From positions 77,838 to 141,837 of the forward strand of contig CAVVTO010000009.1 in assembly GCA_963751185.1 (NCBI GenBank): a DNA stretch of 64,000 nucleotides, in the 5' to 3' direction. The position numbers and the translations under genes are program-made. The stretch comes from an uncultured Solirubrobacterales bacterium (GTDB lineage: Bacteria; Actinomycetota; Thermoleophilia; Solirubrobacterales; Solirubrobacteraceae). The notes under the pieces are model-generated. The model was not told the DNA's origin and did not search any database. It saw only the letters and a program-made list of their open reading frames with translations. Numbering within the stretch: position 1 is the stretch's first letter; every line of letters starts with the position of its first letter. Below, piece by piece: positions 45,161-55,004 of the stretch.

Positions 45161-45886
45161 TCAGGTTCCCCGGGCGCCCTCGTCGAGGTCGCTCGCGCGG
45201 ACGACGCCACCGGCCAGCGCGCGCTCGGCCAGACGGACGCGCTTCTCGTTCTGAGGCAGCTTCTCTATTCCGAAGCGTTCGAACAGCGCTCGCATGTGGC
45301 TCTTGACGGCGGCCAGGCTGAGCACCAACTCACGCGCGATCTCGTCGTTGGTCGCGGGAGTGGAACGCTCGCCACCGGCGAGCGGCCGGCACAGCGCAAT
45401 CAGGACCTTGCGCTGTGCGTCGGACACCTCGGGAGAGGGGGCGGTCGGCGTGGCGACGGTCGCCACCACCGGCTGGGGCTCGGGATCGCGGAAGCCGAGC
45501 CGCGTCTCGCCGATCTGGATGACGTCGCCGTCGCGCAGCGTCCGTTGCCCGTGCAGCCGCTCGCCCTCCACGAACGTGCCGTTGCGCGACAGGCCGTCGT
45601 CCTGGATCACCCAACGCGACCCCCGGCGCTCGAGGTACGCGTGGACGCCGGAGACGCGCGGGTCCCACGGAATCTCGAGATCGCCGCCGGGGGCGCGGCC
45701 GAGCACCAACCGCTCCGCTTCGAGCGACACGATCACCTGCGCGCCGTCGCCGTCGCGGAGGAACAAGAACGGCATCCCGCGTCGCTCGGCGGCGATCATC
45801 GCCTGTATCTCGGTTGGGCGCAAACCGGGGCCCAGCACAGCCCTTTCCTGCGCTCGCACGACCTCAGGGTAGCCTTGGCGGCGCAT
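45161..45886 (-). CDS. FHA-domain protein with C-terminal LuxR/sigma-r4-like HTH
   Basis: FHA: LVLGRAPGGDLEIPWDPRVSGVHAYL...DDGLSRNGTFVEGERL. C-terminus: TNDEIARELVLSLAAVKSHMRALFERFG. Confidence 0.75.
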   Translation of the reverse strand: MRRQGYPEVVRAQERAVLGPGLRPTEIQAMIAAERRGMPFLFLRDGDGAQVIVSLEAERLVLGRAPGGDLEIPWDPRVSGVHAYLERRGSRWVIQDDGLSRNGTFVEGERLHGQRTLRDGDVIQIGETRLGFRDPEPQPVVATVATPTAPSPEVSDAQRKVLIALCRPLAGGERSTPATNDEIARELVLSLAAVKSHMRALFERFGIEKLPQNEKRVRLAERALAGGVVRASDLDEGARGT

Positions 45887-53393: not shown

Positions 53394-55004
53394 TTAGAGC
53401 GAGGCGGCCTCGGTCCGCAGCTGCTGCTCCTGGGCGCCGATCTGGGTCGCCACTTGCTGGTACTTGGTCCGGTTCTTGGCGCGCGCCGCCGCAGCCAGCG
53501 CCTGGTAGGAGCTCGCCAGATCGGTGAGCGTGGTGTGCAGCGAGGCGGGGCTGCCCGGGACCGCGGCCACGCGCTCCGCAGCCGTGCTGAAGGCGCCGGC
53601 GATGGTCGTGGCCGCGGCCGCCTGCTGAGCGGCGGTGTTCGCGGCCTTTACGTTGGCCAGACCGGTGGCGCGCGCACCGGCGAGGGTCTGGAGCACCGGT
53701 CCGAGCTCACCGTCAACGGTGGCAGCCGACGGTTTGTTCGCCGCCGTCGTGCTGCTGGTAGACGAACCGCCGCCACCGCTCGTCCCGATCAGCACGCCGA
53801 TTGCGGCCGCCACCACAGCCGCGGCGAGCATTGCCGCGATCGTCGCCCGTGACCACGAGCGCGCCTGAGCCGGCGGGGCGTCGGGCTCATCGGGGAGGCT
53901 GTGGCGCCGGCCGGGACGGAGGATCGTGGTGTGGCCGGCGGCGCCCGGGACCAGCGGCGTCTCGGTCGGGGTGATCGGCCCGCCGGGCTCGGCGGGCGGC
54001 GGTCCCGGCTCGCCCGCCTTCGCCGCGCCCGCCTCCCGAACCCCGGCCTCCGGGTCCTCCGCGTCCTGCACCCGCTTTTGCTCGACGCTCTCGAACTCCG
54101 CCGGCGTAAGCGGGTGGCGATCCGGCGCGGGCGGGTCGGTGCCGAGCCGGGCCTCCCGACGCCAGCGCGGGCCAAGCAGCTCGATCACGATGTCCTCGAG
54201 TTCATCCCACGCCGCGTCGGCGGAGCCGAAGCGGCCGTCGGGCCGCTTGGCGAGCATGCGATCCAGCCACACCGCGAGCCGCTCGTCGATGTCCGGGTCG
54301 ATCTCGCGCACGGGCGGGACGGGCTCGTGCACCTGGCGGTAGAGGACCGCGACCGGCGTGCCCGTCGACTCGAACGGCACCGCGCCGGTGAACATCTCCC
54401 AGGCCACGATTCCGAGCGAGTACAGGTCGGTGGCCGGCGTCAGCTCCTCGCCCAGCGCCTGCTCGGGAGCCATGTAGGCGGGTGTCCCGATCGTCGTCCC
54501 GGTGGCGGTCACCACCGCCCGGGGCGCGGCGGCGTTGTACGCCCGGGCGACGCCGAAGTCGGCGATCTTGACGCGGCCGTCCGCGGCCACCAGCAGGTTC
54601 TCGGGCTTGAGGTCGCGGTGCACGATGCCCTGCCGGGCGCCGTACGCGAGCCCGGCGAGCACGCTCTCGAGCACGCCCGCGATCTGGGCCACGCTGAGCC
54701 GGCCGACATAGGGCCGTAGCGATCCCCGGGGCATGTGCTCCATCGCGATGTACGGCACCTCGTCGTGCTCGAAGAACTCGTGGACGGTGACGATGCTCGA
54801 GTGGTTCAACGCGCCGGCGAGGCGCGACTCCTCGACGAACCGCTCGGCGAAGCTCGGGTCGGCGAGGTGCTGCGAGAGCAGCTCCTTGAGCGCCACATGC
54901 CGCCGCAGGTCACGCTGGTAGGCGAGGTACACGATCGCCGCGCCGCCCCGGCCGATCACCTCGAGTACGTCGTATCGACCAACCCTGCGCTCCGCTTGCA
55001 CCAT
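53394..55004 (-). CDS. Hanks-type Ser/Thr protein kinase with one TM and a helical extracytoplasmic domain
   Basis: GRGGAAIVYLA...VALK, HRDLKPENLLV, DFGVAR, GTPAYMAPE. TM IAAMLAAAVVAAAIGVLIG. Confidence 0.9.
   Translation of the reverse strand: MVQAERRVGRYDVLEVIGRGGAAIVYLAYQRDLRRHVALKELLSQHLADPSFAERFVEESRLAGALNHSSIVTVHEFFEHDEVPYIAMEHMPRGSLRPYVGRLSVAQIAGVLESVLAGLAYGARQGIVHRDLKPENLLVAADGRVKIADFGVARAYNAAAPRAVVTATGTTIGTPAYMAPEQALGEELTPATDLYSLGIVAWEMFTGAVPFESTGTPVAVLYRQVHEPVPPVREIDPDIDERLAVWLDRMLAKRPDGRFGSADAAWDELEDIVIELLGPRWRREARLGTDPPAPDRHPLTPAEFESVEQKRVQDAEDPEAGVREAGAAKAGEPGPPPAEPGGPITPTETPLVPGAAGHTTILRPGRRHSLPDEPDAPPAQARSWSRATIAAMLAAAVVAAAIGVLIGTSGGGGSSTSSTTAANKPSAATVDGELGPVLQTLAGARATGLANVKAANTAAQQAAAATTIAGAFSTAAERVAAVPGSPASLHTTLTDLASSYQALAAAARAKNRTKYQQVATQIGAQEQQLRTEAASL

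Follow-up and report, generated by a model that had tools for sequence, protein, structure and literature searches.

Beyond the ESX (T7SSa) and firmicute (T7SSb) forms of type VII secretion system (T7SS), Garrett, Higginson & Palmer defined the variants T7SSc-j (microLife 2024; PMC11217815), whose clusters often encode membrane kinases, PPM phosphatases and FHA proteins; T7SSc, d, e and j carry kinases, and the analogy with kinase/FHA control of type VI secretion (T6SS) has already been drawn for these variants (PMC11217815). TsdC, TseC and TsjC keep the phosphothreonine motifs, whereas EssC does not (0% conservation of GR and SxxH in Table S1 of that study), and the membrane kinase TscD combines the topology of EssB with an intact active site (PMC11217815). 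In the T7SSb core unit, the FHA-bearing EssC protein YukB is joined by a dimer of the pseudokinase YukC and by ubiquitin-like YukD (PMC12637312; PMC9600267): the pseudokinase EssB/YukC crosses the membrane once and binds the EssC FHA domains (PMC9600267; PMC12637312), EssB has lost all three catalytic motifs (PMC12599244), the EssC FHA domains work without phosphothreonine (PMC11217815; PMC12637312), and YukD contacts the FHA, DUF and D1 regions (PMC12637312). The EccC ATPase of T7SSa has no FHA domains (PMC11217815). Phosphorylation signalling has also been placed upstream of these systems, IreK and Esr acting on T7SS or Esx at the level of transcription (PMC11217815; PMC13622651) and a kinase/phosphatase/FHA pathway switching on Esx experimentally in Schaalia, according to a 2026 preprint (PMC13622651). 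Here we describe a locus at positions 45161-55004 of a 64-kb window, the whole stretch of DNA analysed (contig CAVVTO010000009.1, ~70% G+C), from an uncultured Solirubrobacterales bacterium. On its sequence this is very probably a T7SS-type export locus, and the kinase and FHA proteins that it encodes are likely to be functional parts of it.

Among the described systems T7SSd (TsdA/C/D/H/I, of Olsenella and Bifidobacterium; PMC11217815) belongs to the same phylum as the locus and is the only other non-ESX actinobacterial type. The two are alike in their WXG100 proteins, in an ATPase FHA domain with GR, SxxH and NG motifs, and in having no separate ubiquitin-like gene; the locus also encodes a small protein with one transmembrane segment, comparable in topology with TsdH, and a single-pass Ser/Thr kinase with a C-terminal ectodomain that we liken by architecture to TsdD, a membrane Ser/Thr kinase whose extracytoplasmic region is helical. 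TsdC (1563 amino acids, aa), however, has a long EssC-like N-terminus ahead of its FHA domain and no ubiquitin-like start, in which the ATPase of the locus differs from it. T7SSd further comprises TsdI, a 1654-aa Sec-secreted protein with immunoglobulin repeats and a C-terminal transmembrane segment, and no ubiquitin-like protein; neither the window nor the related loci L001 and L002 (L-numbers designate related loci throughout) encode a TsdI-like protein, whereas the FHA-LuxR regulator and the 198-aa accessory of our locus do not appear in the list of core components given for T7SSd.

T7SSb resembles the locus in its FHA-bearing ATPase with two transmembrane helices, DUF and three nucleoside triphosphatase (NTPase) domains, in its ubiquitin-like module, in its WXG100 proteins and effectors with helical N-termini, and in a membrane protein that spans the membrane once and joins a kinase fold in the cytoplasm to a helical ectodomain, the last judged at the locus from composition. 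The kinase-fold protein of T7SSb, EssB, has lost the catalytic motifs, whereas the kinase of the locus keeps all of them; EssC carries two FHA domains that do not bind phosphothreonine, whereas the locus ATPase carries one, predicted to be competent; and the ubiquitin-like module, a separate protein (EsaB/YukD) in T7SSb, is fused in cis at the locus. No homologues of EsaA/YueB or EssA/YueC were matched there, and the ATPase falls under the EssC cutoff. T7SSa, again of the same phylum, shares a WXG100 pair with YxxxD/E motifs and the solved EccC proteins nearest to the ATPase, but differs in an EccC without FHA, in carrying its ubiquitin-like domain on EccD rather than on the ATPase, and in EccB, EccD, EccE and MycP, which were not found at the locus. 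Compared with references for ten subtypes, the transmembrane/DUF region of the ATPase scored 89 bits against TsgC, 88 against TscC, 62 against EccC, 60 against TsdC and 57 against EssC (21-27% identity); the references, 280 aa long and noisy from optical character recognition, lie at roughly equal distances from it, a result too weak for a tree. On these comparisons the locus appears to fit none of the named subtypes. The genera that carry this system are not listed in the Garrett supplements, and our literature search found no paper on it in Thermoleophilia or Solirubrobacter, nor on a fused ubiquitin-like/FHA EccC.

The locus bears on two questions: how a channel is assembled in T7SS that have neither the mycobacterial Ecc nor the firmicute Ess membrane proteins, and why many T7SS variants carry kinases and FHA domains. 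One compact, conserved cluster unites a ubiquitin-like module, an FHA domain predicted to be phosphothreonine-competent and a kinase of EssB topology predicted to be active, and makes phosphorylation-gated T7SS assembly open to simple, direct testing. It also offers a plausible evolutionary link to the T7SSb core with its pseudokinase, and with it antagonism or secretion of the T7SS type reaches Thermoleophilia, soil bacteria that are abundant but have been studied little. An earlier note on this DNA had held that wiring of this FHA/kinase kind was not established for T7SS; that view does not survive the description of such wiring for T7SSc-j in 2024 (PMC11217815) and of the Esx pathway in Schaalia (PMC13622651). 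Since the wiring principle has been published for other T7SS variants, the locus adds a variant and not a new principle.

The motor gene (45885-50138, + strand) encodes a 1417-aa ATPase in which a ubiquitin-like domain, an FHA domain, two transmembrane helices, a DUF-like domain and three FtsK-type NTPase domains follow one another, identified by Pfam, NCBIfam and PDB sequence searches. It matches Pfam FtsK_SpoIIIE (E 2.6e-52) and scores 488 bits against the NCBIfam profile for EssC, 382 for EccCa and 306 for EccCb, versus 48 for FtsK and 23 for TraB. These scores lie under the NCBI cutoffs for EssC (778 bits), EccCa and EccCb and under those for FtsK (1566) and TraB (800), the EssC match spanning residues 514-1258 only, and the protein is therefore a divergent family member. 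Among sequences of solved structures, EccC of T. curvata (270 bits) ranks above EccC5 (212), B. subtilis YukB (192) and FtsK (63). The two adjacent transmembrane helices (residues 238-277; 46596-46715, +), located by hydropathy scan and in the sequence, align with the transmembrane-plus-DUF region of EccC3 and EccC5.

The NTPase region runs from the Walker A motif of D1 to the Walker B motif of D3 (47829-49832, +), as delimited by motif positions and by the coverage of FtsK_SpoIIIE and of EccCa/EccCb. Its P-loops read GTTGAGKS (residues 649-656), GIGGSGTT (976-983) and GPPRSGKT (1243-1250), and D1 alone is fully canonical, with GKS in its Walker A (47829-47852) and VIIDEF as Walker B. D2 is degenerate in both motifs, its Walker A (48810-48833) having no lysine and its Walker B, LLLDGY (49077-49094), no glutamate; both degenerate motifs are nearly invariant across the Solirubrobacterales clade, and D2 is probably a non-catalytic domain that senses nucleotide or substrate. 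In D3 the Walker A GPPRSGKT is paired with a Walker B, LLVDDA, that ends in DD.

We fetched 82 related loci and searched their open reading frames, using the window proteins and iterated profiles as queries; the ATPases of the Solirubrobacterales clade among them are about 55-97% identical. WXG100 or WXG-like genes are linked to the ATPase in 52 of the 82, and T7SS_signal genes in 47. This linkage bears on whether the protein might instead translocate DNA in conjugation or chromosome segregation and lie beside WXG genes by coincidence, as one could suppose from the name that the sources give it ('DNA segregation ATPase FtsK/SpoIIIE') and from its weak matches to TraB, TcpA-like coupling proteins and FtsK. 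The linkage, the arrangement of three NTPase domains, DUF and two transmembrane helices, which is that of EccC/EssC, and the gulf between the FtsK and TraB scores and the 300-490 bits reached with EssC/EccC profiles make this extremely unlikely. A grouping of the ATPase with conjugative or segregation translocases, set out beforehand in the earlier note as a test of its reading, came out negative; on its profile scores and layout the ATPase belongs with EccC/EssC and not with FtsK or TraB.

Ahead of the membrane segment lie two further domains. In an AlphaFold2 (AF2) model that covers residues 1-230 and draws on 31 homologues, the FHA domain falls at residues 92-187 (46158-46445, +) with a predicted local distance difference test score (pLDDT) above 90; Pfam FHA matches residues 113-175 (E 8e-14). 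Its best Foldseek matches are the phosphothreonine-binding FHA domains of CT664, GarA, OdhI, FhaA and EmbR (TM-scores 0.8-0.9), and the residues G116, R117, S131, H134, N155 and G156, which make up the GR, SxxH and NG motifs, are invariant in the 31 homologues and 86-99% conserved in 93 representatives of the wider family. Conservation and fold alike indicate that the ATPase FHA domain keeps the canonical phosphothreonine-binding site and is predicted to be binding-competent.

Residues 1-78 (45885-46118, +) are modelled with the topology b-b-a-b-b-(short helix)-b at pLDDT 60-89. When a profile of the first 90 ATPase residues from 20 loci was compared with the PDB, the top of the list held only ubiquitin-like chains, at weak E-values of 0.0015-0.07, among them SAMP2 and ISG15 (E 0.0015), ubiquitin and MoaD-like proteins; the Pfam matches were SAMP2, ubiquitin and Ub-Mut7C. 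The YukD family PF08817 matched none of 20 members, and YukD was not among the PDB profile matches. Foldseek with the N-terminal model returned FHA domains only and no ubiquitin-like match, because the FHA domain dominates the model, and we therefore relied on topology and sequence profiles, from which we assign residues 1-78 with moderate confidence to a ubiquitin-like beta-grasp domain. Hidden Markov models (HMMs) built in this analysis find both the ubiquitin-like and the FHA domain in 82 of 149 clusters of the ATPase family.

The kinase gene (53394-55004, −) encodes a 536-aa transmembrane Hanks-type Ser/Thr kinase (Pfam Pkinase, E 3e-47) with intact VALK, HRDLKPEN, DFG and APE motifs. All 14 orthologues share GRGGAA, VALK, HRDLKPEN and DFG without variation, along with an activation loop rich in Thr, and the nearest solved relatives are PknA and PknB (E 1e-45). 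The kinase domain is followed by a Pro/Thr-rich linker, a transmembrane helix (residues 389-407) and an Ala-rich ectodomain of ~130 aa that is 30-44% identical among orthologues and was called helical from composition only. With these features the enzyme is a single-pass protein, catalytically intact and active-looking. All 60 top PDB matches listed are canonical kinases, with neither EssB nor YukC among them, and the likeness to EssB/YukC is one of single-pass topology alone.

A second FHA domain is encoded at the other end of the locus, in a divergent regulator of 241 aa (45161-45886, −) in which Pfam FHA (E 3e-15) is followed by a C-terminal DNA-binding region. GerE matches this region weakly, at 19.9 bits and below cutoff, and a profile of the C-terminal 95 aa matches only LuxR/NarL-type DNA-binding domains in the PDB (LiaR/VraR, DosR, GerE; best E 0.0016). 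The GR, SxxH and NG motifs and the C-terminal helix-turn-helix (HTH) are kept in 15 related loci; judged by its residues, the FHA domain of the regulator retains the phosphothreonine-binding site and is predicted to be competent. It also weakly matches the NCBIfam model for the T6SS TagH FHA domain. The PpkA/PppA/Fha1 system of T6SS, with its TagH-type FHA protein, likewise combines a membrane Hanks kinase with an FHA reader, though its secretion machine is unrelated and no partner phosphatase of the PppA type was seen at the locus. A parallel in gene regulation is EmbR/PknH of Mycobacterium tuberculosis, where a protein that joins FHA and DNA-binding domains is again encoded near a transmembrane Hanks kinase; EmbR, however, has an OmpR-type winged helix, a BTAD and, at its C-terminus, an FHA domain, whereas the regulator of the locus has its FHA domain N-terminally and a DNA-binding domain of LuxR/GerE type.

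Kinase and regulator are held in place by more than chance. An orthologous kinase (450-1039 bits, versus ~100 for unrelated kinases) is present in all 16 Solirubrobacterales loci that reach far enough and adjoins the WXG100 gene in 15 of them, and the FHA-HTH gene occurs in 15 loci of this clade; that the set of kinase, FHA-HTH, ATPase and WXG genes is kept while other flanks vary between loci argues for an association beyond coincidence. Outside the clade, a search of 1.8 billion representative proteins recovered at least 150 ATPase family clusters at 50% identity, the query's own cluster excluded (650-1070 bits, 35-68% identity), spread over Acidimicrobiales, Catellatospora, Catenulispora, Blastococcus, Nocardioides, Actinomadura and others. 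The kinase abuts the ATPase in several other Actinomycetota lineages; Blastococcus aurantiacus, for instance, has the order kinase, ATPase, EspC-like protein, T7SS_signal protein and WXG100. In some of these clades the kinase stays beside the ATPase without any FHA-HTH gene, and in other lineages, such as Nocardioides and Georgenia, WXG pairs are linked to the ATPase with no kinase within 10 kb.

The putative cargo is encoded by an operon of four genes, spaced by 14-33 bp, that converges on the ATPase gene. The first (52471-52761, −) encodes a 96-aa WXG100 protein (Pfam WXG100 75.6 bits, cutoff 27.3; NCBIfam WXG100_ESAT6 64 bits, cutoff 44.9) with WQG at residue 44 and a C-terminal YQATE of the YxxxE form. 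Its 93-aa partner (52175-52456, −) has no WXG motif but reaches the cutoff of Pfam T7SS_ESX_EspC at 23.5 bits, carries the C-terminal YxxxD motif YSSSD (residue 80), and as a jackhmmer query recovers WXG100 genes, which places it in the WXG100 superfamily. The third gene (50732-52159, −), assigned from family profiles and an AF2 model, encodes 475 aa with WTG at residue 51; its N-terminus is WXG100/T7SS_signal-like but sub-threshold alone, whereas 32 and 31 of the 34 members of its family match WXG100 and T7SS_signal, respectively, and the Blastococcus counterpart exceeds the Pfam T7SS_signal cutoff with 48 bits. The model is confident over residues 1-195, where three helices pack into a bundle around the WTG loop, ahead of a hydrophobic central region.

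Within this family the N-terminal ~200 aa are kept at 45-73% identity, but among distant members only 6-20% identity is left over residues 276-475; the C-terminus of one member is a GH-E nuclease toxin domain. A fixed N-terminus, swapped C-termini and the GH-E member amount to a polymorphic-effector architecture, by which the 475-aa protein is a putative T7SS effector. Foldseek yielded only generic long-helix (BAR-like) matches for the effector, all at E >0.02, with PPE4 at rank 27 and no toxin fold among them. The last gene of the operon (50102-50698, −; G+C at third codon positions, GC3, 0.88) overlaps the 3' end of the ATPase gene by 37 bp and encodes an accessory protein annotated as 198 aa, its homologues in the clade being ~168 aa long and 21-64% identical with conserved motifs. 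It matched no Pfam, NCBIfam or PDB profile, yet HMM searches found it after the 475-aa gene in 16 related loci. We considered it as a swapped immunity cassette and downgraded this idea, the family being conserved while the effector C-terminus changes; from its conservation it looks like a dedicated accessory or chaperone instead.

Streptomyces EsxAB has been proposed to have a developmental or cell-envelope role, and export at the locus might likewise serve development or the envelope rather than deliver toxins, the 475-aa protein then being a membrane-associated structural part of the apparatus. The hydrophobic centre of that protein and its want of a recognisable toxin fold would suit this, as would the conserved rather than variable 198-aa family and the secreted lectin-like and NlpC/P60 genes that recur nearby. 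The swapping of the C-terminal third between relatives, with a GH-E nuclease in one of them, is by contrast a hallmark of polymorphic effectors, and many relatives have a second short T7SS_signal/WXG-like pair; we think a role without toxin delivery quite unlikely and continue to read the 475-aa protein as a putative effector.

The reading of the earlier note for these genes has held up well. It had described a 1417-aa ATPase of EssC/EccC layout with two transmembrane helices and three P-loops, on which motifs, hydropathy and profile scores now agree; a 96-aa WXG100 protein with a WQG motif, a 93-aa partner and a larger WTG-headed protein, each borne out by the family matches above; and a divergent FHA-HTH regulator and a receptor-like Hanks kinase flanking the locus, with a canonical FHA domain in the ATPase, in which profiles and residues concur. 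To its question whether kinase, FHA-HTH, ATPase and WXG genes co-occur in relatives, the 16 kinase and 15 FHA-HTH loci answer yes. It had overlooked the 198-aa gene, the 153-aa single-transmembrane gene and the ubiquitin-like domain of the ATPase.

Its further claim, that this is a minimal T7SS, stands in part. Genes were called with GC3 guidance and translated, and Pfam and NCBIfam profiles were run on 39 window proteins; EccB/D/E, MycP, EssA/B and EsaA families matched none of these, nor any protein of the scanned relatives, Blastococcus and Catellatospora included, and a transmembrane scan with Pfam on the same 39 proteins for further T7SS parts brought up only housekeeping functions. Standard components thus do not lie just outside the locus, without linkage to the kinase or regulator, in the window or the scanned relatives, an arrangement that would have spoken against the earlier note. 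To say that there is no EssB is nonetheless too strong, given the kinase of EssB topology, the small protein with one transmembrane segment and the fused ubiquitin-like domain. The only predicted six-transmembrane protein in the window (13387-15453, −) is a GGDEF-EAL protein of cyclic-di-GMP signalling and not a T7SS part; an S8/S53 peptidase (24132-25622), 20 kb away, is of sedolisin type and not a mycosin.

This matters for the supposition that the locus is an ordinary T7SSa with EccB, EccD, EccE and MycP elsewhere in the genome and with the kinase and FHA genes as accessory neighbours. Our view spans 64 kb, the best solved-structure matches of the ATPase are actinobacterial EccC proteins, and its EccCa and EccCb scores combined exceed the EssC score. 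The ATPase nevertheless falls under both EccC cutoffs and carries an FHA domain, which T7SSa EccC lacks (PMC11217815), and a ubiquitin-like domain that EccD supplies in T7SSa; no Ecc or MycP match appeared in the window proteins or in annotated and scanned relatives, and the sole six-transmembrane protein has another function. We regard an ordinary T7SSa as very unlikely.

The remaining gene of the cluster (52899-53360, +; GC3 0.86, with homologues in related loci) encodes 153 aa with a transmembrane segment or signal anchor at residues 4-22, a Ser/Pro/Ala-rich tail and a His-rich end. It belongs to no Pfam family, has homologues in 13 related loci, usually beside the FHA-HTH gene, and is a candidate for a small part of the apparatus in the membrane.

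Observed directly are the genes present, their domain architecture, the intact motifs and the conservation of linkage; from these we propose kinase-substrate pairs, phospho-dependent assembly, regulator targets, an effector activity and channel-forming proteins that could fit together as follows. In a monoderm actinobacterial host, the motor would be an EccC/EssC-family ATPase with a cytoplasmic ubiquitin-like and FHA N-terminus. The kinase would sense an envelope or extracellular cue through its ectodomain and autophosphorylate threonines of its activation loop or juxtamembrane linker, and these phosphothreonines would be read by two FHA domains, that of the ATPase and that of the regulator. 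Binding by the ATPase FHA domain would help the motor to dock or oligomerise at the membrane, where the cis ubiquitin-like domain might do the job that YukD does in trans in Bacillus, while the FHA-LuxR regulator would tune transcription of the divergent ATPase gene, the cargo operon or both, as EmbR/PknH does in mycobacteria. The motor's exports would then be the WXG100 protein, its 93-aa partner and the polymorphic 475-aa effector, the 198-aa protein serving as a dedicated accessory, chaperone or protective factor; the kinase transmembrane segment and the 153-aa protein would be the only candidates within the cluster for extra membrane parts. On balance, an export locus with the kinase and FHA proteins as working parts and phospho-gated assembly is the explanation we favour, with some reserve.

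The weakest step is that phosphothreonine directly gates assembly and not only transcription, which we advance tentatively, leaning slightly against it. Signalling could act on transcription alone, the kinase and FHA-LuxR regulator switching the locus on and the ATPase FHA domain serving as a phospho-independent docking module, as in firmicute EssC, whose FHA domains work without phosphothreonine (PMC11217815; PMC12637312); the regulator is divergently placed and conserved, and IreK and Esr offer precedents for control at the transcription level. Were the ATPase FHA domain such a module, it would hardly be expected to keep all its phosphothreonine-binding residues, invariant in the clade and largely so family-wide, where EssC conserves neither GR nor SxxH, nor would the kinase be expected to stay by the ATPase in those Actinomycetota clades that have no FHA-HTH gene. 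Transcription-only signalling therefore seems to us unlikely.

Several observations weigh against the favoured explanation. The view of 64 kb means that the absence of components is not proven genome-wide, and membrane parts could lie elsewhere. The kinase is transcribed apart from the cargo operon, across a gap of ~630 bp that holds an opposite-strand gene; in L001 an insertion of ~5 kb parts it from the WXG100 gene, and no PP2C-type phosphatase was seen in the cluster. The AF2 confidence of the ubiquitin-like domain is moderate, and a comparison of the ATPase start with verified YukD by hhalign was not significant (E 0.026, probability 1.9%), for which reason we call the domain ubiquitin-like by fold and not a demonstrated YukD homologue. 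Residues 200-475 of the putative effector have no family or toxin-fold match in Pfam or Foldseek, and the 198-aa family is conserved and not swapped, so that a toxin/immunity reading is unproven; searches with the 475-aa and 198-aa proteins turned up no recognisable toxin domain with a co-varying immunity gene at the locus.

A more ambitious synthesis, which we consider doubtful, would make the locus an unnamed T7SS subtype outside T7SSa-j, widespread in Actinomycetota, whose core is a cis-fused ubiquitin-like/FHA/EccC motor with a live kinase of EssB topology. Such a subtype would keep the phospho-dependent state from which the firmicute unit of YukB-FHA, YukC pseudokinase and YukD degenerated, and its channel assembly would be directly gated by threonine phosphorylation.

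The start codons of the ATPase gene (+) and the FHA-HTH gene (−) share 2 bp (45885-45886), both N-termini being backed by homologue alignments, so that no intergenic promoter region separates them; this points to divergent transcripts that are leaderless or driven from internal promoters. The corresponding gap in L001 is 60 bp. A search of four intergenic regions for operators, by shared k-mers and palindromes, gave only chance-level 8-mers and one weak palindrome with 6-bp arms, TTCCGC-N13-GCGGAA (52808-52832), in the intergenic stretch from the WXG100 operon to the divergent 153-aa gene; not above chance in itself, it is a possible candidate operator for the LuxR-type regulator.

Most relatives have, between regulator and ATPase, a second small gene pair encoding a WXG-like protein of ~138 aa and a T7SS_signal-like protein of ~181 aa (in L002, 8892-9437 and 9506-9922, −); it is missing from the window and from L001, L003, L015 and L016. 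Most also encode, beyond the kinase, a divergent membrane protein that combines a zinc ribbon with FHA and Peptidase_M50-like domains (L002, 18695-20383, +; equivalents in L005-L012, L017 and L019), which from its domains is possibly a third FHA reader that links the kinase to regulated intramembrane proteolysis; the window has no such gene, and a CMD-family gene follows the kinase instead. In L017 and L019, contigs of MFD metagenome-assembled genomes (MAGs), ATPase and kinase are split into several open reading frames, likely by frameshifts from assembly or sequencing error rather than as pseudogenes. Three contigs with this ATPase of actinobacterial type, L014, L054 and L066, stand under the MAG names Burkholderia sp., Sphingomonas paucimobilis and Gammaproteobacteria, which are probably binning or labelling errors.

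The closest relatives of the window are metagenome-assembled genomes of Solirubrobacterales/Solirubrobacteraceae (Thermoleophilia, Actinomycetota). The locus is flanked by housekeeping genes, which encode upstream of it an AMP-ligase, a C26 amidotransferase, a threonine dehydratase, a DsbH-like thioredoxin and two secreted proteins of lectin-like type, and downstream CMD-family proteins, glutamine synthetase and DnaE. The two secreted proteins are paralogues that lie directly upstream of the locus (43107-44309 and 44326-45159, both +), each with an N-terminal signal or transmembrane segment and one with B_lectin repeats. In most relatives from Solirubrobacterales their homologues lie no more than 10 kb from the T7SS cluster, though other flanks vary, and in L002 an NlpC/P60 hydrolase gene stands beside them; the pair may be functionally tied to the T7SS cluster. 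Farther off, in a stretch of strongly negative GC skew, a gene with DUF222 and an HNH endonuclease domain (20443-21996, −; 13E12-repeat type) may be a mobile or selfish element; it has no relation to the T7SS locus.

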